DNA of 64,000 nucleotides from an uncultured delta proteobacterium (GTDB taxonomy: Bacteria; Desulfobacterota; Desulfobaccia; Desulfobaccales; 0-14-0-80-60-11). The DNA is taken from NCBI GenBank assembly GCA_963812015.1, contig CAWETI010000003.1:416001-480000 (forward strand). The letters run 5' to 3'. Made by a program: the position numbers and the translations under genes. Positions within the stretch are counted from its first letter, which is position 1. Each line of letters begins with the position of its first letter. The notes under the pieces are model-generated. The model had not been told where the DNA came from. It did no database searches and saw only the letters and a list, made by a program, of their open reading frames with translations. Positions 3,325 to 44,585 of the stretch are shown one piece after another.

Positions 3325-3619
3325 TTATGCGCCGATGATTTTCACCAGCACCCGTTTGCGGCGGCTACCGTCAAACTCGCCGTAGAAGATCTGCTCCCAG
3401 GGTCCGAAATCCAGCTTGCCCCGGGTGACGGCCACCACCACCTCCCGCCCCATGATCTGCCGCTTCATATGGGCGTCGGCGTTATCCTCCCCGACGTTGT
3501 GGCGATACTGGGACACGGGGGCGTGGGGGAGCCAGCTTTTCCAGCCAGACCTCGTAGTCGTGATGCAAGCCGGCCTCATCGTCATTGATAAAGACGCTGG
3601 CGGTGATGTGCATGGCATT
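3325..3619 (-). pseudogene. yjbQ: 3' half of split YjbQ/UPF0047 gene (also +1 frameshift in C-run near 3525)
   Basis: [15 protein letters not shown]...[11 protein letters not shown]...[28 protein letters not shown]-terminal half at 44461-44585. Confidence 0.9.
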
Positions 3620-5310
3620 TACTAAGTATATTATCTTTAACCTTTGATTCCTCCCCGAACATCGCAGGGTTGGCATCAAGCATGACCCTCGAAATGCTTG
3701 ATGCCAACTTCCCGTCATCCTTCCTCACATACAGGTCTTCATCCGCCAGCGTGAAGAAGGCCCCGCTCCGGGCCTCCACCCATCCCCTGACGGCCCCCAG
3801 CTTCCCGTAGGCCTCGAATTTGTAGCGCCTGGGCCTTGCCCCCCAGGTCCTGGACATAGATGCCGTAGCGCCGCCCGGCCTCATCCTTGCCGCCGAAGAA
3901 CAGCCTTATGATTTTCTTTTGGTACTCGAAGGGGAGCTGATGCAGGGCGGCGCCGCTTTCCAGATAAGAAAAATTTTGCCGCGCCAAGAGTTGGGCCCAC
4001 ATTTCCCGCCTGTCCTCGATCTCCCGGTCAGTGGGCAGGGTGGCGAGGCGGTATTTAAGACCGGCGATCTGGTCCTTCAAGCCCTTCGACCGGGACTCAA
4101 GCTCGATCACCCTGGGCATTATGCGCTCCATAAATGGGGCAACGTTCTCGGTGGTGCCTATTGCGGTAACGTAGCCCTCAAGCTGCCTCTCCACTTGGGC
4201 CAATTCATCCTGTTTCGATTCCAGATCCTCCTGGTACTTGTCCGCCACCTTCCCCAAAGGGTGCCCGTCGAACACGGCCCGCTGCAGGCTGGCCTTGCTC
4301 CCCAGGGCCAGGTAGAGCTCCTCCAGCACTGCCTTTTCCAAGACGTCGGCGTTGACCTGGTAGCGGGGCCTCTTGGCTCCTTGGTAGGGCTTATAATATC
4401 TTTTGCCCATGGCGTTGCAGGTTCCGGTCAGGGCTTTTCCGGTATCCGCATCGAATATCACCCTGGCGAACAGGTAGGGGTGCTTCTGGCCCTTCTTGTC
4501 CCAGGAATTGCGCTCCCCGGACTTTTTCCTGATGGCCATGATGGTTTCTTCCGGTAGGAGGCGAGGGACCTTGGTAATCACGGTTTCATCTATGCCATGC
4601 CGCTTTGAAACGAACCGTTGCTCCCATTCATCGCCACAGCGGTGGCACAGAATCTTCTGCAGGTTGGAGCCGTTCATGCCATGCGCCGGCCCCAGGTAAT
4701 TCCACGAGTTATCACCCTCAAGATAAAGCCGGGCCAACTTCTGGAGTTTGATATGTTTTTGCTCGTCAATGCCTCAGGCCCCGTTGTTGAAGGTGCGCCC
4801 GTAAGGGAGTTTGCCGGAGGCGGGCTGGCCCCGCTGCGCCCTGTTGATGCGGCTCAGGATGGATTTGTAGGATTGCTGGGAGGAGAAGAACTCAGCTGCT
4901 TCTACGCCTATACCGACCACAAAGGCTTGAACAGGGTCAAACAGGTTTATCTGCCGGGCACCCTCAAAGAACCTGATACCCGATTTTTGTAAGACCCTGA
5001 TGTGCTGCTTAGATTTTCCGTTATCCCGGCTCCACCTGGATAAATCGGCCACCATCACGGCATCGAACTGCCGGGCTTGGGCGTCCGCCATCAGCTGCTC
5101 CAGGATTCCCCTTTCATAATCCGGGGTGGCGTGCTCCTGGCCAGCATACCATTTGAAAACTTCTCCACCCAGGGTTTCTATGGCCCTGGTTAGCTGTTCC
5201 CTCTGGACACGCAGGGATTCCCCCTGGCGCTCTTGGGCTTCCGTGCTGACCCGGATCAGGGGCGCGAAAAGCAACTTTTTTTCCTGGTTTCCGGTGTCCG
5301 GTTTTATCAT
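3582..5310 (-). pseudogene. Large serine recombinase (integrase); in-frame TGA at 4774-4776 and +1 frameshift near 3835
   Basis: RVST catalytic motif, DLSRWSR, PYG, coiled coil; ORFs 5310-4774 and 4737-3739 are in the same frame; C-terminal part continues in ORF 3884-3582. Confidence 0.85.
3596..3642. other. Left att junction (core TT 3618-3619)
   Basis: yjbQ sequence ends at core; element arm 3620-3642 is an imperfect inverted repeat of 44438-44460. Confidence 0.8.
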
Positions 5311-5466
5311 GGGCAGAGCCTCCTATTTAATTTTAACCCGAAACCCGGTTTGGCCCTGGGGAAATATCTCACCTGAACAAACGCCATAACGCCCGCCCGG
5401 CCATCTTCCCCACCAGCCGCCGTTCGATCCGCTTCCCCACGGCCGTGAGGCCTTTCTCAACGGCCC

Positions 5467-5946
5467 CTAAATCTTCCCCTGCATTTTCTGTAAGGACTTT
5501 TGGCAATGGGGGCACCAATCCCCTTGGGAGCCGTCTTCGATATATGCCTTATGCACCTCCCAGCCCCTACATTGAGGACATTGCTTGAGCCTGTCCAGAC
5601 GCTCTTGCAGGGCCTTCTCCACCTGGCGTGCCACGTCCTCGGGGTCGAAGAGGTGTCCGCAAAAGCGACATTTTTGAGCTTCAAGTTTGATCATCTCGGC
5701 ACACATAGAGCATTTCTTGGTCTCCTGGTCTATGGAGATCTCGCCGGCTGAAGCGCCGTTAGCTACCGCAGGGGAGGAGAGGTTGCCCGGCTCGGGTTTG
5801 GGGAGCAGAAGAGCAAAGATTAATCCAAAGGGGCCCAGGAGAAAGCCTAAGGCGAACCAGCCGCAACTACTTCTCCCCTTATTGCTGGCGGCCTCGGTGG
5901 CGGCAACTCCAAAAAGAATCCAGATCACTAAGATTCCAAATATCAT
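5467..5946 (-). CDS. Membrane protein with zinc-ribbon (CxxC) repeats
   Basis: Two N-terminal TM helices (KGRS..GWF.LG.LLGP), four CxxC motifs. Confidence 0.75.
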   Translation of the reverse strand: MIFGILVIWILFGVAATEAASNKGRSSCGWFALGFLLGPFGLIFALLLPKPEPGNLSSPAVANGASAGEISIDQETKKCSMCAEMIKLEAQKCRFCGHLFDPEDVARQVEKALQERLDRLKQCPQCRGWEVHKAYIEDGSQGDWCPHCQKSLQKMQGKI

Positions 5947-5987
5947 AATCCCTCGCAGTGCACCTGGCCGGCCTGCTTTATTGCCGC

Positions 5988-6164
5988 CTATAACTTTTCA
6001 TCTCGCTTTAAAAAGGCCTCCAAGTCGCTTTCCCGCACCCGCCACATGCGGGGTCCAGCCTTCAAGCCCTTCAACCTCCCGGTCCGCAGCCACTCCCTCA
6101 CGGTCTCGACCCTCACTTTGAGAATTTTGGCTGCATCTTCAGGGGTAAGCAGGTTTTCTGTCAT
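5988..6164 (-). CDS. Excisionase-like HTH_17 DNA-binding protein (possible RDF)
   Basis: Manual translation MTENLLTPEDAAKILKVRVETVREWLRTGRLKGLKAGPRMWRVRESDLEAFL; not in ORF track (<60 aa). Confidence 0.85.
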   Translation of the reverse strand: MTENLLTPEDAAKILKVRVETVREWLRTGRLKGLKAGPRMWRVRESDLEAFLKRDEKL

Positions 6165-6504
6165 AACGTCACCTTACATATGTTTATATAATATTATACC
6201 TGTCTATATGGAAAGTAAAAGGTTTTATTGGGGCTGGAAGGGAAAAAAGAGTCGATGACCTTCTGTTGAATTGGCACCCTTGGCGGAGCTTGTTAAAGGC
6301 ACCAAAAAAGAAAAGCGGCCCGGAGGCCGCTGGGGGTAAGGCAAATGACTTAGGCCGTCGGCCTATTTGATCGCCACCAGGAATCCGACAATGATGATAA
6401 GGCTCGAGAGGACGGGAACGAAGCAACCCATGGCCGACCCGAATTTGCGCTGCCGCCCAGACCTGGTTAAAGGTATTCCGATCTTCCGGCTGATTCTCCC
6501 CTTG

Positions 6505-6657
6505 TGACCTGCCCCCAGTAGTTGTACCAAGTTTTAAGTTAGGATGGGGGTCAAGTCAAGCCAGAGATCCTGGCTCCGCTATGCTCCGCCAGGATCTCTG
6601 GCTTGACTTGGCCCCAACTCTAACTTAAGTTCTGGTATAATCCGTGGGGGCAGGCCA
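6505..6657. mobile_element. Palindromic MITE-like unit made of two IS3 right ends fused at a hairpin
   Basis: TGACCTGCCCCC...GGGGGCAGGCCA; left arm is exact reverse complement of 31328-31379. Confidence 0.75.
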
Positions 6658-6718
6658 CTGGGACGAAGCGACAAGGGGTCGGCCGGACGACGCCGGAGGG
6701 GGCGCCGACCGGGCCGGC

Positions 6719-8293
6719 TTAACTGAGAGCACTCGGCGAGGGAGGCTGAAGCTTTGCCGGGGGCCGTGAGGCTGCCTTCGAGGCCGCCGGTTGGGTCACC
6801 TTGACAGAGGCCGAGGTCGATTCGCAACTGGCCCGCTCCTGCCCATCTGACTTTAGGGGTACGGTCAGTATGACCCGGGTAACCTGCCCGGGGGGCGAGT
6901 CGATCTCCATACGGCCGCCGAAATAGTTCAAACGTTCCCGGATGCTGAACAGGCCGAACCCTTCTACTTTGCCGGACGCAGCGGAGAGCTTCTCTGGAGC
7001 AAATCCAACCCCGTCATCCTCCACGACTACCCGTAAATAATTACCGTCCCGGCGCATGCGCACTTTGGCGCAGCTTGCCTGGGCATGCTTGAGCACGTTG
7101 AACAGCAATTCGCGCACCGCCCTGAAGAGAAGCACCCGGACTTCATTATCCAGATCTTTGGAACGATCATCATCCTCGACTTCCACCGCCAGGCCATACT
7201 GCTCCTGCATATGCTCCCCCAGCCATTCCATGGTGGCCTCGAACCCCACATCGTAGAGGATGGGGGGGCTGAGTTCGAAGATCAACGACCGGGTGTATCG
7301 GATTGATTCATCAATCAACTTCCGGATTTCTTCTAGGGGCTTGGCAAAGCTGCGATAGAGAGTCGATCCCTGCATTTTTTCGAATTTGCCCTTGGCCAAT
7401 ACCAGCAACTGGGCAATATGATCGTGGAGCGCCGTAGCCAAGCGGCGCCGTTCCCGTTCTTCGGTCAAAGACAGTTCCGAGGCCAGGGATTGCAGCTGTT
7501 CCTGATAGGTGCGAATCTTTTCCTCGCTCTCCCGTCGTTCGGTAATGTCCTCAAACAAGGCGATGACAAATTGTGGTTTTCCCCCCGCATCCCGCACCAG
7601 GGAAATTGACTGCCGCCCCCAGCCGACCCAGCCGTCTTTACGGACATAGCGGGTCTCCAGCCGACAAACATTCTGTTGCCCCGAGAGCAATTGCTGAAAA
7701 GTCGCCCGGCTCAACTCGGCATTCTCCGTCGGGTTGATCCGGGTGAAGTCCAAGCCGCGCAATTCTTCTGATGCATAACCCAGCATGGCCGACAGAGCCG
7801 GGTTCCCCTCAATTACCTGTCCCCGCTTGTCAATGAGGGCTATGCCGATGGCAGCTTCCCGAATAATGGTCCGGAACCGGGACTCACTTTCCAGCAAGGC
7901 CTTTTCCACCCGCCGCCTTTCGGCAATTTCCTGGCGCATCTCTTGGTTGGCCTTTTCCAGTTCAAAGGTCCGGGCTCCGAGCTTTTCCCCCAATTTGACG
8001 TTTTCCCGGCCAAAATCCCGGATGAGTGTCTGGTATTTCACTAAGATGAGATAGGCACAAATAGTCGCCAGAGCGCAACCCAAAATAGCCAGGTAGACAT
8101 TCGAGAGAACCCCGGCGCTTTGAGGTATAACAACTTCCCTGAATAACTGAAAGAGGGAAAAGGCGATAATTGCCTGCAAACTGACCATAATCACCCAGGT
8201 AACCCAGTTATTGACCGTACCTTCGCCCTTATTGGCACTTTTAGATGCGATCCTGGGAGCCGGTTCACCCTCGAAGATTTTCGCAGAGTTCAT
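6719..8293 (-). CDS. Membrane PAS sensor histidine kinase (NarX/NreB-like, HisKA_3)
   Basis: 2 TM, PAS, EERERRRLATALHD phospho-His box, ELLFNVLKHA, DDGVGF, GFGL. Confidence 0.9.
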   Translation of the reverse strand: MNSAKIFEGEPAPRIASKSANKGEGTVNNWVTWVIMVSLQAIIAFSLFQLFREVVIPQSAGVLSNVYLAILGCALATICAYLILVKYQTLIRDFGRENVKLGEKLGARTFELEKANQEMRQEIAERRRVEKALLESESRFRTIIREAAIGIALIDKRGQVIEGNPALSAMLGYASEELRGLDFTRINPTENAELSRATFQQLLSGQQNVCRLETRYVRKDGWVGWGRQSISLVRDAGGKPQFVIALFEDITERRESEEKIRTYQEQLQSLASELSLTEERERRRLATALHDHIAQLLVLAKGKFEKMQGSTLYRSFAKPLEEIRKLIDESIRYTRSLIFELSPPILYDVGFEATMEWLGEHMQEQYGLAVEVEDDDRSKDLDNEVRVLLFRAVRELLFNVLKHAQASCAKVRMRRDGNYLRVVVEDDGVGFAPEKLSAASGKVEGFGLFSIRERLNYFGGRMEIDSPPGQVTRVILTVPLKSDGQERASCESTSASVKVTQPAASKAASRPPAKLQPPSPSALS

Positions 8294-9415
8294 AGACCAC
8301 CATCCTTTCCCCGTTTGAATATACCTGCAGATTATTACTTTCCAGCCCCTTTACTCTGCCATTTTTGTCCCGAAACGGAATTAGGTATTCCCTGAAACTG
8401 GAGTTCGGAAACCCCTAATTTACTTTGTTAAAATTTTTAGGTGCTCTTCCTGATGACCTGAAGGTGCATTCCTTTCGACCATGGCCTGTCCCGGGGTGTA
8501 GATCGGTCTAAATGCTGATAATGCAGGTCCAGGAGCCACCCTTGCATAAAGAACCGGGTGAGTAAGGAGTTCCGCCCCCGACCAGGCATTTTACGGAGAG
8601 GTTAAGCCTGCGCTCTGGGCGCAATAACCATGGAACCCCTACCCGCACGGGGGTGGGGACAATGGAAGCCCAAAAAAGTCAGAGAAAGCAGGGGGGCCGG
8701 CTAACAAAGAGCACGTACGGCAAAACTATCAAAGCTTTTTGGGAGTACGCAATATAGTGGACATTTAACCAGGCTGTAGGAAAAAGCTCTTTGAATCTGT
8801 CGCGATCATTTTTGAATTGGTAGTATAAAATATTTTATGATTATAGATTATAAGTTATTAAGAATAATAATAATAATAAATAGTTTTAGTATTAGTAATA
8901 GGCTTATGAATATATTGTGGATAGATATAACATATTGCGGGATATTCTTTTTTAATAGTAAATAATATTATACATAATAATGATCTTCAGTAAGGTACCT
9001 TTAGTTATTATAATATAACCATACTGATTAAGGCACCAATAGCTGTCAATACAATTATTTTCCCTCTGAGGATTGCGTTTCCTCCTCACATTATTTCTTC
9101 CATTACCTATTATAAGTTTCATTAAATGAATCATCCTCCAATCAGCTGCCCGATGAGGCCTCGAAATACCTTTCATGTAAGGAAGTTTTTATATAAATTC
9201 ACTTACCTGTGGCAAATAAAAAGATTGATGGATCAATTAACGGTAACATGCTCATTCTCAAAACAGGATTTTCGAACCTCGAAATCATAGTTTCCCTGAT
9301 TCATATCGAAAGTATTTTCCCCTATGCTCGAGAATACGCCCACAAAGAGTACGGAATGATCGAAAAATATTTTGCTCCTCCTGGCGTGGGACGCCATAAT
9401 CTGGAGACACGATTT

Positions 9416-19743: not shown

Positions 19744-19966
19744 CGACCTTTGCCAGGGACAAAAGGTTGGCGTCGCTGGCCCCCAGGCATCTTGTCACTA
19801 GCGCAGTTGCTAAAAAGTCAAGTAATTGAAGGTAGACTCGGCATAGCGAAAGTTGCCCTATGGGAGCCTCATTTCTTGGTGAGTCAGGGTTTTATCCCAC
19901 GAAAAACCATAGATCTCCGGGTTTTTTTTGAGGACAATCACCATAGATTCGTCCTTGAATGAAAAA

Positions 19967-20758
19967 ATGTCCGAGAATCAGCAGTCAAAAGATTTGATGG
20001 CAAAATTGACCCAGGTTGATAGTAAATTGGAGGCCATCAATAGTCTCCTGGCCGATAAAGCTTCTCTCGACCGGCAGGCGCCGACGGCTCCGGATTCAGC
20101 CGATGCAGAGAACCCGGGCAACCCGATCCCAGGGTCCTTGGAAGATGCCGATAACGAGGAAGCTTCCCGCTCTTGGGCTCAGTCGAAAAATCCCTTGCCG
20201 CGCCGAGCCGCCATCACCGCATCGGAAGCCGAAAGTATTTTTCAAAGGGTGGAAAAGATCAATCGTGATGCAGAAATCTTGGAGAGGGTGGAAAGGCTGG
20301 AGAGGCAAAACCGCAAAATTACCCTTCTTGGTTCTCTGTTCATGACGTTCATGGTTCTGGTGCTTGCCGTCTTTACGGTCTTAATGTTTCAAGCCAACCT
20401 CTGGAGCAAGGGCGCCGGGCTGCAAGCTTCTCAAGGGGGCGAACCTCTCAAACAACCCCCAGCTCAGGAGAAGGCTGCCAAGGTAGATGAGCCCAAGCCT
20501 ACCGAGCCCGTTGTCAAAGTTACTGAGCCCAAACCAGCCGAGTCCATGAAGCCGGTCAGTGATGCCAAGCCCGCCAAGGTGATTCCTCCCGTAAAATACG
20601 TGGGTTCCATCACCTCCAACAAATACCATTATCCTAACTGCAAATGGGCGGCCGAAATCAACCCCAAAAAGCTCCGCACCTTCTCCTCCGTTAAAGAAGC
20701 TCGGGAACAGGGTTATATCCCATGTCCAACCTGCGGGCCGCCGCACCATGATCCTTAG
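19967..20758 (+). CDS. Membrane-anchored Ada-like zinc-binding protein, paralog of 14438-15232
   Basis: Shared VEKINRDAE..ERVE.LE.Q motif, TM, C-terminal KYHYPNC...GYIPCPTC. Confidence 0.8.
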   Translation: MSENQQSKDLMAKLTQVDSKLEAINSLLADKASLDRQAPTAPDSADAENPGNPIPGSLEDADNEEASRSWAQSKNPLPRRAAITASEAESIFQRVEKINRDAEILERVERLERQNRKITLLGSLFMTFMVLVLAVFTVLMFQANLWSKGAGLQASQGGEPLKQPPAQEKAAKVDEPKPTEPVVKVTEPKPAESMKPVSDAKPAKVIPPVKYVGSITSNKYHYPNCKWAAEINPKKLRTFSSVKEAREQGYIPCPTCGPPHHDP

Positions 20759-20858
20759 CAGGGCTGTTCTCAGGCAAAAACTTTAGAGCGCCTGAAGTTT
20801 CAACACCCGCCGACGGTAAAATTTCTTGTGGCTCCTGCAATTCCGGCAAGGCCTCTAA

Positions 20859-23667: not shown

Positions 23668-24237
23668 ATGGAGGCCTTCATTCAGGTGCTGGAATCGACA
23701 ATTGCGGCCCGGGACCCATATACCGTTGATCATCAGCGTCGGGTAAGCCAGATAGCCTGTAAAATCGGCGGGGAGATGGGACTTTCCGAGGACCGCCTCC
23801 ACGATCTGCGGATGGCCGGCATGCTACACGACCTGGGCAAGATCGCCATCCCCACCGAACTGCTTTCCAAGTCAGGGAAACTGACCACCCTGGAGTTCGC
23901 CCTGATTAAAACCCACCCTCAGGTGGCCTTCAACATCCTGGCACCCATCACCCTGCCGGGCCACACTGTCATGATTATTCTGCAACATCACGAACGGGTG
24001 AATGGCTCCGGCTATCCCCAGGGTCTGAAAAGGAATAAAATCCTCCTGGAAGCCAGGATACTGGGCGTGGCCGATGTGATGGAGGCCATGTGCTCCCACC
24101 GTCCTTACCGCTCCTCCCTGGGGCTGGCGGAAACCCTGGATGAACTTACCCGGAACCAAGGGATTCTCTATGATGTTGCCGTCGTGGAAACCTGCCTGAA
24201 ACTCCATGGGCCAGACCTGCCAGCCCCCCTGGCTTGA
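23668..24237 (+). CDS. Stand-alone HD-GYP phosphodiesterase
   Basis: RDPYT..H, HDLGK, HHERVNGSGYP, HRPYR. Confidence 0.9.
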   Translation: MEAFIQVLESTIAARDPYTVDHQRRVSQIACKIGGEMGLSEDRLHDLRMAGMLHDLGKIAIPTELLSKSGKLTTLEFALIKTHPQVAFNILAPITLPGHTVMIILQHHERVNGSGYPQGLKRNKILLEARILGVADVMEAMCSHRPYRSSLGLAETLDELTRNQGILYDVAVVETCLKLHGPDLPAPLA

Positions 24238-24238
24238 G

Positions 24239-33736: not shown

Positions 33737-33918
33737 TGATGACTTTCCAAGGATATAACTTCATTCAGATTATTAAAATATAGATATGGCCTGAATATGG
33801 AAGGTTTTTGGCTTCCTGATAAGTGTCGGATCATAGATGCTATGAAAGGTTCCTTAAGTAAGCCTCTTGGTATAAAAGTGGAGTTCCTCAAGAAAAAAAC
33901 AGGAAAAGGAGGCTTACC

Positions 33919-35070
33919 ATGGACCACAAGCAGGGAAACCAGGGTCGAGAACAGAGCGCCCAGGTGCCGGTTTTGTACGTCGCCTTCGAACTGGCTAACA
34001 GCACCTGGAAGATGGCGTGCACCGATGGCAGCAAGTTGCGGCATCTCACCGTGACTGCTGGGGACCTGGCCCAAGTCCAAAGAGCGATTATCGGAGCCAA
34101 GCGGCATTTCGGTATGGGGGACAAGGTGCACACGGTGAGCTGTTATGAGGCCGGACGTGACGGTTTTTGGCTGCACCGGTATTTGCACAGCTGCGGGATA
34201 GACAATGTGGTGGTGGACTCTGCCAGCCTGGAAGTGAACCGGCGGTTGCGGAGGGCGAAAACCGACCGGGTCGATGCGGGGAAACTATTGAGCATGCTGC
34301 TCCGCTATCACGGCGGGGAGAAGCACCTGTGGCGGGTGGTGCGGGTGCCGAGCCGGGAGGATGAGGACGCCAGGCATTTACACCGGGAATTGGAGGCCTT
34401 GAAGAGCGAGCGGACCCGGCACCGCAACCGGATCCATGGGATTTTGATTCAACAAGGGCTGCGTGTCAGCAACCCGAGCACGAAAAAGTTTGTCAAGGAG
34501 TTGGAACTCATGCGCACCTGGGAAGGCCGGGAATTGCCAGCCGAGATGAAGGTGCGGCTGGTACGGGTGCATGAACGGCTACGCATGGTGGAGGAGCAGA
34601 TCAGCGGCCTGGCAAAAGAGAAAACGCAGCTTCTTAAAGTAGAGAACGCCAGGATGGCGCAAGTGGCCCAGCTCCTGAGGCTGCCCGGGATCGGCCCGGT
34701 AAGTTCCTGGACCTTCGTCATGGAGTTTTTCGGCTGGCGCCGTTTTCGGAACCGCCGGGAAGTGGCCGCCCTGGCGGGCCTGACCTCTACCCCTTACGAC
34801 AGCGGCAAGAGGTTGCGAGAACAAGGGATCAGTAAAGCGGGTAACCGGAGGGTGCGCACCCTGGCCATTGAGATCGCCTGGGCCTGGCTGCGGTTTCAAC
34901 CCCGAAGCAAGTTAAGCCGGTGGTTCCTGGAAAGGTTTGCCGCTGGCGGGAGCCGCATGCGACGCATCGGCATCGTGGCCCTGGCCCGGCGGCTGCTCAT
35001 CGATCTGTGGCGTTTTCTGGAGTACGGGGTGGTCCCGGAAGGAGCCCAGGTAAGGCCACTGGCAATTTAA
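33919..35070 (+). CDS. IS110-family recombinase/transposase
   Basis: RuvC-like YVAFEL, YEAG, AKTDRVDA; C-terminal PGIG, GLT..PYDSG, ISKAGN, VALARRL. Confidence 0.92.
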   Translation: MDHKQGNQGREQSAQVPVLYVAFELANSTWKMACTDGSKLRHLTVTAGDLAQVQRAIIGAKRHFGMGDKVHTVSCYEAGRDGFWLHRYLHSCGIDNVVVDSASLEVNRRLRRAKTDRVDAGKLLSMLLRYHGGEKHLWRVVRVPSREDEDARHLHRELEALKSERTRHRNRIHGILIQQGLRVSNPSTKKFVKELELMRTWEGRELPAEMKVRLVRVHERLRMVEEQISGLAKEKTQLLKVENARMAQVAQLLRLPGIGPVSSWTFVMEFFGWRRFRNRREVAALAGLTSTPYDSGKRLREQGISKAGNRRVRTLAIEIAWAWLRFQPRSKLSRWFLERFAAGGSRMRRIGIVALARRLLIDLWRFLEYGVVPEGAQVRPLAI

Positions 35071-35095
35071 CCCAGAATACGGAGTTGATGTAGAA

Positions 35096-35294
35096 GTTTT
35101 GGTTGGTGAAGTCGCCCGTGTAACTGCTGGGTGCTCTTGAGTCACCGTTTTCATAGAGTGGGCGCTTCAGCAATCGGTTCCCCGCAGCGCAACCCCGCGC
35201 ATGCAGCATGCGGTGCCTGACTAAGAGTCAGCACGGATAGAAGCTTGATGGGGGCTTTGGCCCCATCGATTTACCGGAACCAACCAACCAAAAC
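35096..35294 (+). ncRNA. Predicted bridge RNA / seekRNA of the IS1111-group element
   Basis: Closing stem gttttggttggt/accaaccaaaac; two hairpin-capped internal loops whose strands match target flanks and donor junction. Confidence 0.75.
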
Positions 35295-35623
35295 GGCTCA
35301 CAGGTCTCTAACAAAAATTGCCTAGGAGGATAGCTCTCTTCGCCTCGGTCTGAGGTTTTTAGCATGCCCCGTCGAGGTGTCAAGGTTTCCCTGCGGCGCC
35401 CTGCGACCTTGACACCTCTTCCTGGGCATGCGGCTGGGGAAGCAGGCCGACGGCGAAGGGATGGCCTTTTGACCTCGGGCTCAGGGATGGAGGTTTAACT
35501 GCCCGGAAGACAAAAAAGGCTTGACAAGAGGAACCCACATAGAAGCAGTTATCGAGAGTTCTAAAGGCGGGTTCTGCCCTTGAGAAAACCTTTTCCTGCT
35601 CATCTCCCTGCCTCCCGTCGATC

Positions 35624-36285: not shown

Positions 36286-37062
36286 ATGGCCCGAAAGATT
36301 ATAACAGTTGCCTTAGTGTTTATCCTCGCAGCTTCCCTATCCGGCTGTGCCACCGAAGGCTATTATTCATCGGGACGATCCGCTGCTGGTGGAGCCATGG
36401 AGCAAAAAGATCCTATTTATGAGGAATTGGCTGAACATGGAAGGATGACGACAGGACAGATAACTATTGTTTATGGCGTGCCATGTGTAGAAGTTATGCT
36501 GAAGAGTGGTGAAAGCATAATGACATTTGTCTATTCCATACCTTCTTTAAAGAAAAAATCTCTTATTGTTCAGGACAGGATTGCTCTCCTTAATAAAACG
36601 CACTATCTATTGATCGTGAATGGTTCCGGTAACATCAGCACCTATAAGGACAAAATATTCGTGCCGCTCGACTATTCGATCGAGCCGAAAATTCTGCCGG
36701 AATTTTTGCCTGGTGCGGCCAATCATGAAAAGTACATTCTGATAGATCGCCGCCAGCAATATCTCGGCCTTTATGAACGGGGAAATTTGAAATACTGTTA
36801 TCCAATTTCTTCCGGAATCAAGAATTCGACGCCTTTAAAAAAATTCGTGGTTAATTATATGGATGAAGTTCATCACTCCAGTAAATATGAACAGGCGCCC
36901 ATGGATCATGCACTGAATATTGGCAAGGATTATTTCATTCATGAAGGAATAGTTCCTGGATATCCCGCATCCCACGGCTGTATCCGGGTGTTTCCCCTTC
37001 ATGCCCGTTTTCTTTTTTATCAGTGGGCCAAGCCGGGAATTCCCGGGAAAATTATAGGTTGA
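36286..37062 (+). CDS. L,D-transpeptidase (YkuD) family lipoprotein
   Basis: Lipobox LSGC; PISSG, STP, FIHEG...ASHGCIR. Confidence 0.85.
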   Translation: MARKIITVALVFILAASLSGCATEGYYSSGRSAAGGAMEQKDPIYEELAEHGRMTTGQITIVYGVPCVEVMLKSGESIMTFVYSIPSLKKKSLIVQDRIALLNKTHYLLIVNGSGNISTYKDKIFVPLDYSIEPKILPEFLPGAANHEKYILIDRRQQYLGLYERGNLKYCYPISSGIKNSTPLKKFVVNYMDEVHHSSKYEQAPMDHALNIGKDYFIHEGIVPGYPASHGCIRVFPLHARFLFYQWAKPGIPGKIIG

Positions 37063-37280
37063 GTCCGTTGCAAAACGGAATCTTCCTGGCGTTGAGGATT
37101 TTCGAGCAGGTCGTTTTATCTTGAGGAGATTGGCGCGTTAGGACGGAAATGTGCCCCATTTCAAGCTTCATATCTACTTCTATATCAAACTCATCCCAGA
37201 GCACAATTTCGATCTTTTTCAAGTTAATTCTCCCATTTGTAATTCGGCCTCGACGATGAGCACTATCTAAGAATAATAAG

Positions 37281-37598
37281 TTATGAATGGCATGAGGCTT
37301 TATATTCGGTGAGCCCTAAGCCCTTGGCGTTCAATGTGATTAACTTCGGAGAATTGAGAACCGTGCGCATCAATTTTTTAGCGCAGTCCCCGGCCCGCAA
37401 GGCATCCTGCAGATTTTTCTTTGCCTGGTCCAGATTGTCCCCTTCTTGCAATACTGTAAGAGCTAACTGCACCTGCCATAGCATCGCCATAAAGTTGTTG
37501 CCAAAGGAATCCAAGGTCCAATTCAGCTGTTGAAACGAGGACTCCGTCTCTTTTTTTCCATTCCTTCGATCTCGGATGTTATAAGTGTCATTCTGCAT
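37281..37598 (-). CDS. Stand-alone HisKA/DHp-like protein lacking phospho-His
   Basis: TLDSFGNNFMAMLWQVQLAL...A..A...AKKLMRTVL resembles IAHDFNNIL.AILG..ELAL; RBS ggagg. Confidence 0.55.
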   Translation of the reverse strand: MQNDTYNIRDRRNGKKETESSFQQLNWTLDSFGNNFMAMLWQVQLALTVLQEGDNLDQAKKNLQDALRAGDCAKKLMRTVLNSPKLITLNAKGLGLTEYKASCHS

Positions 37599-37766
37599 GG
37601 CTTAATCCTCCAAATGGCGTAGCAAAGAACCTCATTCAAGATTTGTTGAACAAACTGTAATCTTTTCTTATAAAAATGATATTAGGAATCCCCTGATATG
37701 TGTTGCACGAAATGACCATATTGCTATGGTCAAAATGTTCATGGAAATTTTGATGGCCTGAAGAAT

Positions 37767-37831
37767 TGTCCTGCCCCCAAAAACTGATCAACAAGTTATG
37801 GTAGATTAGCGGATCGAAGGGAGGCAGGTCA
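37767..37831. mobile_element. 65-bp IS3 deletion scar
   Basis: IS3 left end tgtcctgcccccaaaaactgatc fused to ...ggcaggtca. Confidence 0.65.
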
Positions 37832-37991
37832 AAAGGGCATTTCAGAATAGCGACTATCTTGCCATTATCAGCACAACCCAAAAGGTTGCGATATGATCTG
37901 CATAACGACAGAGGTTTCGCAGGGCTGGGGAACTCTATGGATCAGGGATGGAAAAATCTGAAGGCAGCGGACCAGTTATTTTTGTGCGTTT

Positions 37992-39527
37992 TCAACGTTG
38001 ATCCTTTTTCATCTCCTGCGGAACCCCGCCGTAATTTTTGGTGGTGGTTACCAGACCTTTCGAGCCGGTGATATGGTATCGGACCTCCGGTCCCCGGTTG
38101 CTGGCCCGTTCGGTGAGCCGGGCGGCCAGCTCCTTGTAATAGTAGAAAAGGCCCAGGCCGTCCCCCTGGCCCTGGCCCCCCGCCAGAACCAAAGCGCCGC
38201 AGGCGGAATTCGCCACGTCGTCATGCCCGGCCGGGCCGTGGGTTATCATGTCCTTGCCCATGGGCCGCACCCGCCGCTCCAGGCCAAGCAATTCCGAGAG
38301 CAAAGCCTGGTCGTCCAGCAGCTCCACCTGGCCCCTGGTGAACAGGGGCAGGGCCTCCAGGAAGATCTGCGACCTGTCCCTTACCGAGCTCCGATAGTCA
38401 ATGCCGTGCTCCCGGAATGCCGAGACGACCCACTCGGCCGCGTACTTGTCCCCCGTCACTTGAGAGCATTTGAACTCCTTGAGCACCTGGGCATATTCGG
38501 CCACCACCTCACCCGGATTGAAGGGGGGGACCCGCCGCCGGATCACGTCCAAAACAATTTGGCCATCGGCTTCACGGTGCGCCAGGCCCAGGGTGAAGCT
38601 ATCCTGGCGGCCCCCGGAGGGGGCTGCGAAGCCGAAGTACCGCAAACCTTCCTTTGGCGGCAGCTCTCGCCGACCATGAACGACCAGGGGCTCCAGGGTC
38701 TCGATGTCCAGGAACCCCGAAATGTCGTCCCGGAACAGGGCCAGGTACTCGGTCTTGGCGCTTGCGTGGTCCTCAGCCAGTGCCTGCTGCACCACTTCCG
38801 CGGACAGGGTCGGGTTCATGGTCCGGGTGGCCGCCTGCCAGACCAGGACCCGCCCGTCCTTGCCGTAGTAGCGGGAGAATGCCTCCCACATGACACCCTG
38901 TTTGGCGTAGGGTGAGCTTATGGCGATCAATGGCCCACCAGTGGTGGCAAGGCCGGGGCGCAGACTCCGCAAGATCTCCTTGCCGGGGTCCCTGCCCTCC
39001 ACTCTCCAGAAACTTGCTTCTTCCAGAATCACTGCCAACAGGGTGTATCCACGAACGGCCGCCGTGGAGCATGTCAGAATCTTGATGCTCACCCGGTTCT
39101 TCAGCCTTATCTCCTGGGCCAGGTCCGCCTCCACCATGCCCGCCAGGATGGGGGAAAGGCGGAATATCTCCCGGCAATATGAAATGATTATGCCGGCCTG
39201 CTCCCGGTCGTTGGCGATCACGGCCACCAGGCCGATCTCGCCGGGGGCCAAGACGGCCGTATCGGCAAAGGCCGCACTGAAGCAGGCCGTAGCCGCCGTG
39301 ATCCGGGACTTGCCGCCCCGCCTCCCCACTATGAAGTAGACCTCCCCGGCAGGGCCTTGTGGGGCCGCTTGCCGCCCCGTGCATCTCTGATAGAGGGGGA
39401 GGTCAATGTCTGCCAGGGGGAGGCCGTAGGCGGCCTTTAGAGCCGTCCTCCAGGGCTGCCAGGGTGCGAGGTCTGGGAACCCCGCCCCTATCAAATTTCT
39501 GTCTCCAATGGCTTGAATTATATTCAT
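37992..39527 (-). CDS. Terminase large subunit-like protein
   Basis: Walker A GRRGGKS, LEEASFW, ISSP, C-terminal GDKY, HDD nuclease residues. Confidence 0.8.
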   Translation of the reverse strand: MNIIQAIGDRNLIGAGFPDLAPWQPWRTALKAAYGLPLADIDLPLYQRCTGRQAAPQGPAGEVYFIVGRRGGKSRITAATACFSAAFADTAVLAPGEIGLVAVIANDREQAGIIISYCREIFRLSPILAGMVEADLAQEIRLKNRVSIKILTCSTAAVRGYTLLAVILEEASFWRVEGRDPGKEILRSLRPGLATTGGPLIAISSPYAKQGVMWEAFSRYYGKDGRVLVWQAATRTMNPTLSAEVVQQALAEDHASAKTEYLALFRDDISGFLDIETLEPLVVHGRRELPPKEGLRYFGFAAPSGGRQDSFTLGLAHREADGQIVLDVIRRRVPPFNPGEVVAEYAQVLKEFKCSQVTGDKYAAEWVVSAFREHGIDYRSSVRDRSQIFLEALPLFTRGQVELLDDQALLSELLGLERRVRPMGKDMITHGPAGHDDVANSACGALVLAGGQGQGDGLGLFYYYKELAARLTERASNRGPEVRYHITGSKGLVTTTKNYGGVPQEMKKDQR

Positions 39528-39594
39528 TGTCTCCCCAGCAATGCCTTTTTATGGGGTCGGGGCGTATCGCTTGAAATCGGACCCGAAACGGGGT

Positions 39595-40218
39595 TTAAAG
39601 ACAGGGTCCGCCGGCCGATTTCATGGCCTCCATACCCCGTTTCCTGCCCTCTGCGAAAGAGGCCATTTGCTCCGGGCTCAAGGGGCGCCCCCTCCTGGCT
39701 ATCCTGGCCCCGGCCAGTTCGCAGACCTGCTCCAAGACCGCAGCCGGGAAACGGATTTCCTTTCCCAGGCGCTCATCCGTCTCGAGGGCCTGCTTGGCTT
39801 CCCTCACCCCGGCCTGAACCTTCGCGGCCGTCTGGGTCGTGGTCAACAAGGCGAAGGATTTCTCTGCCTCGTCGTAAAGATGGATCACCCCGCCGTTCTC
39901 GCAGATGATCCATTCGTACCAATGGAGCTGACCTTTTTTGAATTGAGGTTGCTCGCAAACGAAGGCAGGGTCGAGTCCCATGTGGTATCGGTAGCGGGTT
40001 AGTTTGGCGATCGTGAACGGCCCGGCCCAGTCCTTCTCCAGGATTCTTTTCCATTGGTAATGCGCCGGTGCCTTCCCTTCCGAGACTATCATCAGCACGA
40101 CGCCGCCCACATTGGCCTTGCCCGGCAAGCTGTCCATGATGTCTCCTGCATTTTTCCCCACCAATAAAAAAAAGCCCCGCAACGGCATTGCTGCCAGAAA
40201 GCGGGGCCTCTTGGCCAC
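39595..40218 (-). CDS. Hypothetical protein (start possibly 40137)
   Basis: Long ORF with coding-like composition, co-oriented with terminase. Confidence 0.6.
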   Translation of the reverse strand: MAKRPRFLAAMPLRGFFLLVGKNAGDIMDSLPGKANVGGVVLMIVSEGKAPAHYQWKRILEKDWAGPFTIAKLTRYRYHMGLDPAFVCEQPQFKKGQLHWYEWIICENGGVIHLYDEAEKSFALLTTTQTAAKVQAGVREAKQALETDERLGKEIRFPAAVLEQVCELAGARIARRGRPLSPEQMASFAEGRKRGMEAMKSAGGPCL

Positions 40219-40369
40219 ACCTTGCAGATTTATTTTGGGTTACTTGATTCCTAGACTCTTTAGTGTCCACCTCACGATATTGATGATTGCGCCGTAAAGG
40301 TCGGGGGCTATGTCCCTGATCTTGAAAAGGGCAGCGGCAAGTTCATTTTCGGTCATTTTCGGCCTGCCT

Positions 40370-40404
40370 TATTTTTAGGAAAATATATTATTTTCCTAAA
40401 AATA
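40370..40404. promoter_or_regulatory. Perfect AT-rich palindrome upstream of tyrosine recombinase (candidate recombination/operator site)
   Basis: tatttttaggaaaata-tat-tattttcctaaaaata, 16-bp arms. Confidence 0.5.
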
Positions 40405-40474
40405 CTGTCCTTTTCCTTTATCTTTTCCTTAATTTATTATATATTTTCATTAAAATAAATGGGGGGCCAAGACC

Positions 40475-41095
40475 ATGGGACAGTACAAAATCACCCGTGA
40501 CAAGTTCCTTTCCACCGATGAAGTCAAGCGGCTCTTGAAGGTCTGCGAGGAGCAGGCCGACCTCGACTTGCTCAAGGGGCGGCAGACTTGGGTCACCCGG
40601 CATATGCTGGTGGCCCTGGCCCTGCGTAGCGGCCTCAGGGTGGGCGAGATCGCCGCCCTCAAGATCGGGGACATCCACCTGGGAGGACGAGAAACCTATA
40701 TCAGTGTTAGGCGCGGCAAAGGGGACAAGCCCAGGGATGTTTTTTTCAACGGGTCGCTGGTCAAACCCTTGAAGCGGTACATCGACATCAAGGCCAAGAC
40801 CTGGAAGCAGCCTGTCAGCCTGGGTGATTCCCTTTTCTCTCATGGGGAGGGAAAGCCCTTCACCACCATGGCCCTGTACTTCAGCTTCAAGAAGGCCTTG
40901 GAGAAGGCCGGGCTGCCCCTGCATCACACAATCCACCATGCCCGTCATACCTTCGCCACGCATTTGCTGGCTGACACGGGAAACCTCAAATTCGTGCAAA
41001 AACAGCTTGGTCACGAAAACATCGCCCACACCGCTCTCTACGCAGACATCCTCCCGGAGCAGCGGCAGGCCCTGGCCGACAAATTGAGCATTTAG
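40475..41095 (+). CDS. Tyrosine recombinase (catalytic domain only, resolvase-like)
   Basis: SGLRVGE, GKGDKPR, HHARHTFA, LGH....TALY. Confidence 0.9.
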   Translation: MGQYKITRDKFLSTDEVKRLLKVCEEQADLDLLKGRQTWVTRHMLVALALRSGLRVGEIAALKIGDIHLGGRETYISVRRGKGDKPRDVFFNGSLVKPLKRYIDIKAKTWKQPVSLGDSLFSHGEGKPFTTMALYFSFKKALEKAGLPLHHTIHHARHTFATHLLADTGNLKFVQKQLGHENIAHTALYADILPEQRQALADKLSI

Positions 41096-41106
41096 AGATG
41101 ATTGCA

Positions 41107-41595
41107 TCATTCACCTTTACCCTGGCCCACGGCCTCTACCGACACAATTTGGCCGGATTTTAGGGCGTCCAGGTATTCTTGCAGGCTGGGGGCCTTCTCC
41201 GGGAGCTGCCCATCTTTCGCCAAGGCGCTCATTGCCATAATGTCCGCCCTAATGCTGTTGCAGAGCATCAAATAATCTTTCTCCGTCCCGGCCCCCAGCT
41301 CCACCTTACCCCCCAGCAGCGCCGCCTCGTAGGACGCCGCGCGGATCAGCTTGACGGCGCACCGCTGGGCCAATAGCTGGGCCGGGCCGGGCGCCGGCTC
41401 CTTGTGGCCTTCCAATAACAGTTCCGTGGCCCGCCTCAGGACTTGCGCCAGCCGCGTACGGCCGTCTATGTCGTGGCGCTCCAGGGCCATATACAGGCCG
41501 TGCTTCACCTTTCGCAGGGGTTTGGGAAACAAGGAGTAAGGGCTTTTGGGCCTTTTCCTATCATTTCCCGGTTTATCGTTTGAATCATCTTTCAT
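41107..41595 (-). CDS. Hypothetical protein, possible terminase small subunit
   Basis: KHG motif, helical, upstream of and co-oriented with TerL. Confidence 0.45.
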   Translation of the reverse strand: MKDDSNDKPGNDRKRPKSPYSLFPKPLRKVKHGLYMALERHDIDGRTRLAQVLRRATELLLEGHKEPAPGPAQLLAQRCAVKLIRAASYEAALLGGKVELGAGTEKDYLMLCNSIRADIMAMSALAKDGQLPEKAPSLQEYLDALKSGQIVSVEAVGQGKGE

Positions 41596-41628
41596 ATCAG
41601 TCAGTTATCCTATATTGGGCGATGATTG

Positions 41629-41940
41629 CTAACCCCTTATCAGGGGGCCTGGGCATGGGGTGGCCTCAGCCCGCTCCGTATATCCCTTTCTCAACTGGTT
41701 TGGGGGCATCTCAAAGATGCGCTCCAAAACTTCCCACACATGATAATGGGTCCCCATGGCCACGGTCTCCCAGCCTGTGGCCTTCCCCTCCAAGGCATGG
41801 GCCTAGTGAAAACGAAGGCTTTCCTCCAGGGTTGCTATGTGGCCCTGGCGCTGCGCACTCGAATACTCGCCGACCCAGATATGCCTGGCCTCATATTCCC
41901 CCCAGGTTTCGTCTGGCAGCATTGGAGAGTGTTTAGTCAT
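41629..41940 (-). pseudogene. Hypothetical ORF with in-frame TAG at 41803-41805
   Basis: RBS ggaggaaagg; 45 codons, TAG, then 57 more open codons. Confidence 0.45.
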
Positions 41941-42288
41941 TTCCTTTCCTCCAGCCTTATTCACGCCCCGGCCGCCAATATGATTATCTCGGGGGGGTGG
42001 GGGGTGATTGATTGTCTTTTTAAAAACCTCCCCTGGACCCCAAAAAGCTTTTCGAGGCCGTATAGGGGACGAAGTCCCCTCTAGTGCACCGAAGACAGGA
42101 AAACATAAATGGCACTGGACCGAAGGGACAGGGCATTGTTTTCCTGTCGAAGGTGCACTCGTTCATGGGTTATAATGGGGGACCCCATCCTGAGGATCGT
42201 TATATACGCAGTTAGCAATATCCAATGTTTTCATTAGGTTACCCTATCAAAGATTATTTTCGGTAGCCTGCCGGAAATAATCTTTGGT

Positions 42289-43268
42289 CTAACCGAAAAT
42301 AATATTATTTTCGGTGGCCTGCCGAATATGATGTGAGGTCCTCTTGTCGCCCCCCACCTTGAATTCCCTCAAGATGGCCTTCCAATGGGGGGTATCCTTG
42401 ACGAAGGTCTGTTTCCTCCTCCTGGCGCCCCCCGCCGTCTGCTTGAACTCGATCCATGTCCCGATGGCGTAAATCTTCTGTCCCCGGCCCCCGTGCCCCT
42501 TCTCCCGCCCATGTCCCAGATGACGCCGACCCTGCACAACCCCTGGAGGGTCTTCTGGAGGATCGACCCATTAATGCGTTTTTTCAGGGCCTTGGCGTAG
42601 TCCATCGTGAACAGCACGAGGTGTCGCCGCATCCTCGGCGGCACCAAGCCCTCCCTCCTCAGGTCAAACCAGCGGTCCTCCTGCCGCGCCCGGAGTTGGG
42701 CGATGTCCGGGTATCCCTCAATGGGCTCGGGGTCGGGCTCGGGGTGATCCTCAGTCAGGTCCTTATGCCTGACGGATTTTCTCGGGCACAGGGCCTCCAG
42801 GCGGATGCTTTCCTCGTAGGGCGTCAGTTCGGTCAAAATGAAATTCATGATCTGACTCAGCTTGGTTCGCTGAAGCCTCCTGTCAATTTTTGGGTCGTCC
42901 AACACCCAGCGCGGCGGCCACTTCTCATCTTTCCCCTTCGGCTGGCTTCTCCGGAGCTTTTCCCGCTCAGCCTCGGCCTGGGCAATGATTGACTGTTGTC
43001 TATTCTCTTCCTGCCTGATAAAGGCATTAAGGCGGTGGGTGATGAATTTGCCCCGGTCTTTGGCTTCTTCCGGCTCGGGGTATCTATCCCAGGCCTCCAC
43101 ACAGGCGTCGTGAAATGGCTGGTAAAGAAAGTCTGCATACTGGAACCCCAGGTGGCAAATCGTGCCCTGCCTACAGCCCTCCTTGACGGGGCAGTGCCCA
43201 CACCAGGGGTTCCTGGGATTAAATTGCAGCCTGAAATATTGGCAAGATTCATTTTTTTTCCGTTCCAT
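42289..43268 (-). pseudogene. Hypothetical (possible replication) protein with frameshift near 42500
   Basis: N-terminal Cys cluster; C-terminus continues in ORF 42537-42289; repeats and hairpins immediately downstream. Confidence 0.45.
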
Positions 43269-43367
43269 TTGGCGCCCCTCCTATGGGCAAAAAATCGCGG
43301 ACGACGGGGGCGATAGGAGCGCCCCCGCTTGACCTTGTTGCAACAAGGCGTCCGGGAAACTTTGTAA

Positions 43368-43574
43368 TCATCGTGCGAACAAATCCCGGGGCTCCAAGTT
43401 GAAAACCTTGCCCAGGGCCTCGGCCTCCCCCGGCTTCGGGACAAGGCCACGTTCCAGCATCGAAATCTTTACTTGGCTGATCGGCGTCCCGGCCAGCTTG
43501 GCCAGCTCCGCAACAGTAGTTTGGTTAAGTCCCCTCACAACTCTTTCATGTTTCAGCCGACTTATCTGCATCAT
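43368..43574 (-). CDS. XRE/Cro-like HTH regulator
   Basis: LK.ER..RGLNQ..VA......ISQ..ISMLERG. Confidence 0.8.
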   Translation of the reverse strand: MMQISRLKHERVVRGLNQTTVAELAKLAGTPISQVKISMLERGLVPKPGEAEALGKVFNLEPRDLFAR

Positions 43575-43831
43575 TGTTGCCCTCCATAATCCCGCCGATA
43601 AACAAACTGCCCCGTCGAAGTAGCATTTCTGCTAAACCGGGCGGGGCAGTTTGCCAAGCCGTTCTGATTCAATTTTACGTTACTCCCTTTATAATATATT
43701 TTTAAGCCAAAATAAAGAAAAAAATATATAAAAATGCATCATTATTTAATAACCCCGGGTCTTGTTCATTCTTGTTTTTGCTTCTCGATGGTTCGGCCCT
43801 CTTAATTACATTGCAGGGGGAAGGCCACCTC

Positions 43832-44332
43832 TTAACTAAGATATTCCCGATCTACCGGGCATTCGCCTTCCTCACCCTTGACCCAGATCGTCCAGGAAAA
43901 TTGGTCCCGTGTGCTGTAATCGGTTATTTTGATTGGCATCCTGCCGTCCGGGTCTTTCACTCCGACCACTGGATCCAAGCTGTCGCCCACCCAGTTGTAA
44001 TCCATCAGGGCGACCATCCTGATCGGAAAAAGTTCGATCGCCGCATACCAGTGCCACTCGCTGACCATGAAAACGTCCCCGTGCTCGGAGCCGATAACCA
44101 ATTCGCTCATGGCCTCTAAGGCGTCCCCGAATGCCCGGCAGACGACGAATGGGTCGTCCTCCAGGTCTTGCCTGGTGATGCCCAGTTGGGCGTTTATCCG
44201 AGCAAAAAATTTCCTCATGTCCAGCTCGCGGAGTTCCTCGGGAGTTGGCAGCCGGTCCTTCTTCTCATCAACGATGTACATCTTGCCGTCGCTCATAAAT
44301 TCCTCAGGTTTTTTCAGCAACAAAAAAATCAA
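43832..44332 (-). CDS. Hypothetical protein at element end (start possibly 44296)
   Basis: 166 aa acidic ORF. Confidence 0.6.
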   Translation of the reverse strand: MIFLLLKKPEEFMSDGKMYIVDEKKDRLPTPEELRELDMRKFFARINAQLGITRQDLEDDPFVVCRAFGDALEAMSELVIGSEHGDVFMVSEWHWYAAIELFPIRMVALMDYNWVGDSLDPVVGVKDPDGRMPIKITDYSTRDQFSWTIWVKGEEGECPVDREYLS

Positions 44333-44437
44333 GCCGTGGAGATCTTCGGGGTTTGGTCATCGTTCAAAATTTGTTTCTGGCGGCAGTTTTGGAGAGAGCG
44401 GACTTCGCCTTTGAGCCGGAAGGGGATTATCCTTGAA

Positions 44438-44485
44438 GGGTAAAGTTCATATAAATTGCCTTGACCAGGACGAGGCCTTCGGTGA
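44438..44485. other. Right att junction (core TT 44461-44462)
   Basis: yjbQ homology stops at GLVLV|; arm 44438-44460 pairs with 3620-3642. Confidence 0.8.
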
Positions 44486-44585
44486 TGCCGCTGTCGGCGA
44501 GGCACTGTTGCACCTGGGGGGTGATATTGATGAAGGCCCGGCGGCCGGGGACTTGAAACCAGAGTTCTTGACGGTAGCTTTGCAT
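44461..44585 (-). pseudogene. yjbQ: 5' half of split yjbQ
   Basis: [41 protein letters not shown], typical YjbQ N-terminus. Confidence 0.9.

Follow-up and report, generated by a model that had tools for sequence, protein, structure and literature searches.

A 40.8-kb island with a broken serine integrase splits yjbQ at codon 42 in an uncultured Desulfobaccales bacterium

In an uncultured delta proteobacterium of the order Desulfobaccales, the two parts of one yjbQ gene lie 40.8 kb apart. The DNA analyzed here is a stretch of 64,000 nucleotides, referred to as the window, which corresponds to C3:416001-480000 of the genome G000 (assembly GCA_963812015.1, contig CAWETI010000003.1); positions below are those of the window unless a contig is named. 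The genome assembly comprises 3.96 Mb in 6 contigs, with a completeness of 99.86% and a contamination estimate of 5.72. The locus raises the question of what split yjbQ, whether the element can still leave, and whether its excision could switch the gene back on. The original prediction, made from the sequence of the window, proposed a serine-integrase element with a reconstructable pair of attachment (att) sites and pointed to the switches formed by skin and SPbeta. The physiological function of YjbQ is unknown; low thiamine phosphate synthase activity is described in two reports (PMC3010111, PMC3091646).

We conclude that the element is very probably an island that was placed at an AA core in codon 42 of yjbQ by its own large serine recombinase (LSR), which was later broken twice, and that the island is likely fixed, with yjbQ decaying alongside.

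Junctions and attachment sites

The features at the two junctions are listed below.

44463 to 44585, minus strand: 5' half of yjbQ (UPF0047), 41 codons, matching the intact orthologues of the genus
44438 to 44485, minus strand: attL (host arm, AA core at 44462-44461, element arm), from junction analysis and orthologue comparison
3595 to 3642, minus strand: attR (element arm, AA core at 3619-3618, host arm), within the 3' end of the integrase gene, from junction analysis
3582 to 5310, minus strand: LSR (integrase) pseudogene, with its last frame running through the att core to a stop at 3582-3584, within the 3' half of yjbQ
3325 to 3619, minus strand: 3' half of yjbQ with an extra base in the C run 3525-3529, from orthologue comparison and a metagenome contig

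The element spans 40,841 bp between two 2-bp cores at 3618-3619 and 44461-44462, which read AA on the minus strand and TT on the plus strand. The product of the 5' half ends in GLVLV, and that of the 3' half begins with NAMHITASV at 3619. Three shifted core pairs were tried as alternative registers, and none had a common dinucleotide. When the element ends are joined into the site of the free element (attP), their arms show inverted-repeat identity at 15 of 23 positions (17 of 25), and at 13 of the outer 16. The 15/23 symmetry was met by 74 of 200,000 composition-matched shuffled arms and by 23 of 200,000 random window pairs. The host site (attB) showed a symmetry of 7/23.

The coordinates of the halves, the shared core, the element span and the symmetry values given in the original prediction were all reproduced. 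The core, the symmetry and the shuffle controls also support its view of a serine-integrase element that uses a 2-bp crossover and a symmetric attP; attB is asymmetric. Its statement that the halves rejoin in frame is correct at the junction itself but not for the whole gene, where a +1 frameshift in the 3' half had been overlooked.

The halves belong to one gene. An intact yjbQ, which was to be sought in relatives, was present in 13 of the 17 other genomes of the genus; the gene was split in one (G008), its 3' half stood at a contig start in another (G009), and two had no match at E 1e-25. The joined halves shared 121-129 of 138 residues with the 13 orthologues, and both flanking genes (YHS upstream, BrkB family downstream) lay within the 3-kb locus in 6 of these 13 genomes. 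An origin of the halves from different paralogues was ruled out by these values, as the other yjbQ genes of the genome were 42% and 29% identical to the 3' half. The same paralogous yjbQ match, with equal scores, appears at G000:C1:19582-19920 and C3:2189904-2190242, possibly as a redundant piece of the assembly. The split gene of G008 contains an independent 6.3-kb element at the same core.

Contigs from metagenome runs were compared with the window at the 3618 junction. Contigs from X2 and X4, which belong to other organisms, depart from the window at 3616 with letters resembling the end of the 5' half. Runs X2 to X4 contain only small shares of the window; they represent intact yjbQ of other organisms and are no evidence of habitat. 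A 24-base joint 3616-4378 was seen in run X3.

Identity of the integrase

The integrase is an LSR. Its catalytic domain matched PF00239 (E 1.9e-14), residues R20, V21 and S22 were invariant across 36 sequences, phrog_95 spans its residues 4-441, and its nearest solved sequence is the TP901-1 integrase. The structure model of an intact homologue, L062 (mean pLDDT 82.7), matched the SPbeta, phiC31, Bxb1 and LI integrases, with 9y66 and 9dxh on top, and predicts that the catalytic domain is followed by recombinase, zinc-ribbon-type and coiled-coil domains. The zinc-ribbon cysteine pair of L062 is missing from the clade of the window integrase (window approximately 4370-4440). The reading frame is intact in relatives but not in the window copy.

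A PF00239 search of the genome found two matches, both broken, and no intact serine recombinase. The match outside the window lies in a second island of approximately 26 kb (G000:C3 approximately 994,450-1,020,660, partly L127), which splits comM. This recombinase lacks PF00239 profile positions 1-71 and begins behind a copy of an rve-type insertion sequence; since it is truncated at the catalytic start, we rejected it as a helper in trans. Like the window integrase, it terminates inside host DNA, and the comM junction rejoins uncleanly. The comM island shares a terminase and tyrosine-recombinase module with window positions 37858-41666 at 94% identity.

A family of elements in yjbQ

Of 7,998 candidates scored, 345 were relatives of the integrase, with identities of up to 75-76%, and one integrase with 72% identity was labelled Desulfobaccales. 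Cluster relatives of one host protein bore the labels Deltaproteobacteria and Syntrophales, and these labels suggest that the host likely belongs to the Desulfobacterota. An integrase profile retrieved 762 cluster representatives at E 1e-30, some of which are not specific to yjbQ. We confirmed 191 metagenome relatives and kept 80. Together with 5 genome loci and the window these gave 86 loci, which formed 74 clusters at 95% identity.

The same yjbQ codon was occupied in 43 of the 74 clusters, 19 of them (window included) in the orientation of the window and 24 in the opposite one. Three more clusters occupied the equivalent place of a yjbQ paralogue, with a TA core. The loci L064, L066 and L067 form a small clade at this equivalent codon of the paralogue, where the palindromic TA core is found in both orientations. 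A serine recombinase overlapped the junction in all 46 of these clusters. The core dinucleotide sets the polarity of serine integrases. Opposite elements have a TT core read in the direction of the integrase, as expected if the core sets their polarity. In a tree of 68 clusters, after 6 short rows had been dropped, well-supported branches forced at least 9 changes per orientation label, with unlabelled rows counted among the changes. The tree shows that orientation has flipped several times, the number not being fixed.

In all nine complete elements, the symmetry of attP (11-17/23) was above that of attB (7-9/23). The attP junction predicted from L063 is present in L062, with agreement at 62 of 62 bases; an assembly thus contains the joined form, which may be circular or tandem. 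When 23 loci without a yjbQ junction were scanned for symmetry, only L062 (17/23) and L065 (15/23) were prominent. Intact complete members of the family include G008/L123 and L063/L062. The closest relatives of the G008 integrase, L053-L056 (path approximately 0.24), have no yjbQ junction; after position 11677 of L053, the integrase stop faces what we take, by eye, to be the 3' end of an ammonium transporter gene. The G008 element has, directly upstream of its integrase, an HTH_17 gene and a small additional serine recombinase (L123:3794-4471).

The family is sporadic. Carriers of the integrase were found in 3 of 83 genomes of the order and in 3 of 401 sampled genomes of the phylum, and other genome searches gave 1 of 21 and 1 of 27. 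The genome_contigs set contained one locus and the viral_contigs set two.

At least 11 of the 46 junction clusters have an intact yjbQ directly upstream of the integrase, and the window element has none. Such copies were seen in L063, L068, L069, L070, L072, L075, L079, L082, L084, L088 and L096. The alanine codon after the core was GCC in 3 of 11 element-borne copies and in 20 of 24 targets that were hit (Fisher p 0.002). This difference may mean that the element-borne copies are immune to the integrase of their own element, or it may stem from nothing more than base composition and common descent.

Breaks in the integrase and yjbQ

The window copy carries three breaks. In the integrase, an in-frame TGA at 4774-4776 replaces W179, a tryptophan in all 35 aligned homologues, and a +1 frameshift lies near 3834-3844. 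In the 3' half of yjbQ (295 nt), the surplus base is a +1 frameshift, and the rejoined gene would stop after 86 codons instead of the normal 138.

If all three were sequencing or assembly errors, the element could be intact and mobile. In favour of this explanation, two of the breaks add one base within or next to a short homopolymer. The best-matching run, X1, is a freshwater sediment metagenome (0.93 of sampled words, depth approximately 7). A contig of 2,564 bp assembled independently from it covers 3374-5937 and agrees with the window at every base, with 0 differences and 0 gaps, so that all three breaks are present there; their origin as errors of this assembly alone is hence unlikely. 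X1 may hold the data behind the assembly itself, and the library type is not on record. The completeness of the genome speaks against widespread frameshifts, and the third break, unlike the other two, arose by substitution, in the codon of an invariant tryptophan. Taken together, we regard errors as an improbable source of the breaks. At 3616-3620, neither a loose end nor a joint was found in run X1 among the matches listed, and contigs drop rare forms.

The breaks appear to be recent, as few conserved residues are altered. The integrase has 2 changes at columns conserved at 90% or more, compared with 0-4 in 7 intact homologues, and yjbQ has 1 change at an otherwise invariant position, compared with 0-2 in its orthologues. 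The 3' half of yjbQ was free of stops and frameshifts in all 25 other loci (over its full length in 13, and as far as the end of the contig in 12), and the decay of yjbQ in the window is thus an exception among the loci.

A switch and other explanations

SPbeta SprA (target spsM) and skin SpoIVCA (target sigK) share with the window the large serine recombinase fold and a split host coding sequence, and there developmental excision restores the host gene. A working switch of this kind, in which excision restores yjbQ under some condition, would fit the precise, in-frame junction. The intact 3' halves of the 25 other loci would fit restoration by excision in relatives, or young insertions. For the window copy, this suggestion of the original prediction fails, because the integrase is broken twice, the genome search found no intact recombinase, and the restored yjbQ would be frameshifted. 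A developmental switch such as skin would also be fixed in its lineage, whereas the integrase occurs sporadically in the order. Other yjbQ genes are kept in the genome, and the yjbQ copies next to the integrase in relatives would replace the gene without excision. A switch is, in our judgment, very improbable.

Movement of the element by its small tyrosine recombinase (40475-41095), an intact enzyme with relatives in 12 of the 85 family loci, is scarcely credible: the 2-bp core and symmetric element site fit serine chemistry, a serine recombinase overlaps every yjbQ junction, the same enzyme lies beside a different serine recombinase in the comM island, and the G008 element has no open reading frame (ORF) identified as one.

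We return to insertion by the element's own LSR, for which the following history is proposed. A circle of approximately 10 kb, with the integrase, an HTH protein, a terminase pair and the small tyrosine recombinase, would have recombined its symmetric attP with the attB of yjbQ at the 2-bp core. The crossover lies 11 codons before the integrase stop, and it replaced a 43-residue end by an 11-residue end. Approximately 31 kb of signalling genes and insertion sequences probably accumulated between terL and the integrase, before or after integration. The nonsense mutation and frameshift of the integrase and the frameshift of yjbQ would have followed recently. In intact relatives, the element likely still excises.

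Several points weigh against this account. The case for recombination is built from sequence, and the order of cargo gain and integration may be either. No yjbQ junction was found in 28 of the 74 clusters; 7 of these are cut by contig ends, and the others may use other sites. PF07508 was unmatched in the intact homologues, and PF13408 was weak and below the cut-off. The support from metagenome runs covers one of the two junctions, that at 3618, and X1, possibly the source sample at a depth of approximately 7, consists of contigs, which lose rare variants.

An integrase tail encoded only in the circle

The att site lies inside the integrase gene. Past its frameshift, the frame of the integrated window integrase continues through the core and terminates after 11 codons of yjbQ DNA. 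In the circular form, it would extend 43 codons into the far end of the element:

44329 to 44460, minus strand: distal element end, 43 codons and a stop that continue the integrase frame in the circle alone; PFRLKG at 44424-44407

Integration thus swaps an element-encoded end for one read from yjbQ in another frame, giving approximately 575 residues in the integrated form and 607 in the circle. The integrase frame also crosses the core in all 8 other complete elements. A tail pattern derived from yjbQ ends 52 of 114 full-length homologues, as counted by a regular expression with at least one false positive.

The motif P[FL]xLxG (the PFxLxG tail) was found in the integrase frame of 7 of 11 distal arms, with varied synonymous codons; the arms of L080, L085, L094 and L113 lack it. 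The integrase frame was the longest open frame in 10 of the 11 arms. In shuffled distal arms, the motif arose in at most 13 of 20,000 trials. As the motif was defined after most arms had been inspected, the fresh tests are limited to G028 and 130 new full-length proteins. The two ends of the G028 element are on different contigs and pair with poor symmetry (7/25). Among the 130 proteins, 6 had the motif within the last 70 residues, compared with 0 of 6,500 windows from protein bodies. A search with the C-terminal region of L062 gave only 4 proteins, all of them already known. Against a structural role, the AlphaFold pLDDT was below 50 over residues 506-577 of L062 (tail unstructured). Few rows of the L062 alignment have a circle-type tail (L062, P0092 and perhaps P0104), which makes the tail model weak either way.

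We tentatively suggest, as a possibility rather than a probability, that the circle encodes an integrase with the PFxLxG tail, that integration removes this tail, and that the two forms differ in activity or direction, which would amount to an on/off or directionality device encoded in cis. Under the same tentative proposal, orientation would flip by a change of the attP core from AA to TT, and some elements would bring a replacement yjbQ with an altered target codon.

Content of the island

The other features of the element are as follows.

43832 to 44296 (scanned as 43832-44332), minus strand: ORF of approximately 154 aa, no family in Pfam or PHROGs
42369 to 43268, minus strand: ORF of 299 aa, no family in Pfam or PHROGs, nothing in the ESM Atlas
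41107 to 41595, minus strand: likely terminase small subunit, as a lead only (ESM Atlas, 0.94 to a cluster with Terminase_4 on 56% of its members; neither a Pfam nor a PHROG match)
40475 to 41095, plus strand: small tyrosine recombinase, catalytic domain only, 206 aa (PF00589, E 1.5e-32)
37992 to 39527, minus strand: terminase large subunit (phrog_2, E 1e-16), relatives in 3 of 85 family loci
6500 to 37850 (approximate limits), no strand: cargo of approximately 31 kb, signalling genes and transposases (Pfam, self-comparison of the genome)
5988 to 6164, minus strand: excisionase-like HTH_17 protein of 58 aa, a candidate for a regulator or a directionality factor (PF12728, E 2e-15; TIGR01764)
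5467 to 5946, minus strand: membrane protein with a zinc-ribbon-like domain (Pfam, PHROGs)

The two element ends sum to approximately 9.5 kb, a size well matched by the 8 other complete elements, which span 6.3-11.3 kb. The HTH_17 protein had weak phmmer matches in just 4 near-identical loci of 85. A promoter scan of 3300-6500 gave 0 sites.

Among 51 ORFs searched with Pfam and 23 with PHROGs, no capsid, portal or tail protein was matched, only terminase, and a prophage was rejected on this basis. The presence of terminase genes where virion genes were not found suggests that intact elements may use a helper phage. Phage-inducible chromosomal islands (PICIs), which are phage satellites, typically carry an integrase, an AlpA-type regulator and a primase-replicase, and redirect packaging. 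Compared with this type, a terminase pair and an HTH protein were found, but no primase or replicase was identified with PHROGs or, for the 299-aa ORF, the ESM Atlas.

The signalling genes of the cargo encode a PAS histidine kinase, two GGDEF and three HD-domain proteins, two LuxR-type response regulators, a MerR-type regulator and a YkuD protein. Its transposases are of the DDE_3, DDE_Tnp_1_4, rve (two) and IS110 types. The G+C fraction of the cargo was 0.498, compared with 0.587 for the right flank. Copies elsewhere in the genome (at least 80% identity over at least 300 bp) cover 13,302 of the 40,841 element bases. An IS110-type element at 33833-35549 and a 900-bp stretch at 19959-20858 have copies elsewhere in the genome with 100% and 99.9% identity, respectively, indicating recent exchange with the rest of the genome. 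A repeat of approximately 100 bp with inverted ends (6504-6620) has short copies near 24230, 28715, 29890, 31330 and 33770 and at many places in the genome, and resembles the end of an rve-type insertion sequence.

Relation to known systems

An att site inside a serine integrase gene is already known from the rumA integrative and conjugative elements (ICEs), phage Goe14 and DsiB. The streptococcal rumA ICEs have a single serine integrase (Ambroset et al. 2016, PMC4701971). They resemble the window in the short direct repeat (2-21 bp in theirs) inside a host coding gene, in the att site within the integrase gene, and in the reciprocal exchange of 3' ends by which both proteins change frame. They differ in the target, which is yjbQ here; moreover, in our elements no conjugation gene was identified, both orientations occur, the circle-only PFxLxG tail is conserved, and the window copy is broken. 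The integrase of Bacillus phage vB_BsuS-Goe14 targets spoVK (bioRxiv 10.1101/2021.11.22.469490). Its attP likewise lies in its own C-terminal coding region, which is truncated on integration, and a regulatory function is raised as speculation in that study. Goe14 is a complete phage of the SPbeta type whose integrase loses 131 residues, with a new ORF of 97 aa, whereas here 43 residues become 11 and no virion gene was found. DsiB, of the ssrA islands of Dehalococcoides (McMurdie et al. 2011, PMC3146451), is also a serine integrase of approximately 540 aa on non-phage islands, always overlaps the att site at its 3' end, and has a variable tail supplied by the host. In contrast to the window, its target is a transfer-messenger RNA gene and its integration module has six genes; a conserved circle tail is not described in the portions consulted. 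The small serine recombinase, HTH_17 gene and integrase of L123 are arranged in a manner resembling the DsiA/DsiB pair.

Tyrosine integrases offer parallels. The Mx8 myxophage integrase has attP in its gene, and the integrated, short-tailed form is reportedly less active (cited in PMC4701971). It differs from the window integrase in being the tyrosine recombinase of a phage, with 112 residues replaced by 13. SSV1 is a further tyrosine example of an att site within the integrase gene (as cited in PMC4701971 and PMC5861418).

In non-pandemic Vibrio cholerae, yjbQ is named as the insertion site of 20-26 kb islands in 3 strains (PMC12082036 and a preprint). These share with the window the insertion in yjbQ, and figure text mentions a recombinase; neither the att site nor the enzyme type is stated in the portions seen. 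No paper on a yjbQ-directed family of serine integrases, or on such an att pair, turned up in our literature searches, whose scope did not extend to the complete TIGER and LSR databases; the family may be listed there. In Durrant et al. (PMC10083194), yjbQ is absent from the main text and the 8 supplementary files consulted, whose tables mostly omit target gene names. It is likewise absent from the supplement of PMC12884075 and the main text of PMC13626063, as far as available.

Significance

The feature is real and precisely mapped, and is a broken copy of a known kind of system. For the host genome, the effect is modest: a likely fixed island disables one of several yjbQ genes and carries cyclic di-GMP (c-di-GMP) and two-component signalling cargo.

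The result carries more weight for the family, which supplies a large natural set of LSR/att pairs in which the target is conserved, both orientations occur and the sites are mapped exactly. The proposal of a new integrase/attachment-site pair stands as a candidate, with no such pair met in the literature searched, and the intact relatives are better test material for it than the window copy. Intact complete elements of 6-11 kb lend themselves to work on site specificity and on the polarity of the core dinucleotide. The circle-only tail would allow a simple two-protein test of whether integration alters the activity of the integrase itself, an idea raised in three papers and, in the portions consulted, not tested there for a serine integrase. 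For tool builders, cloning such an integrase from the integrated form would yield the host-tailed version.

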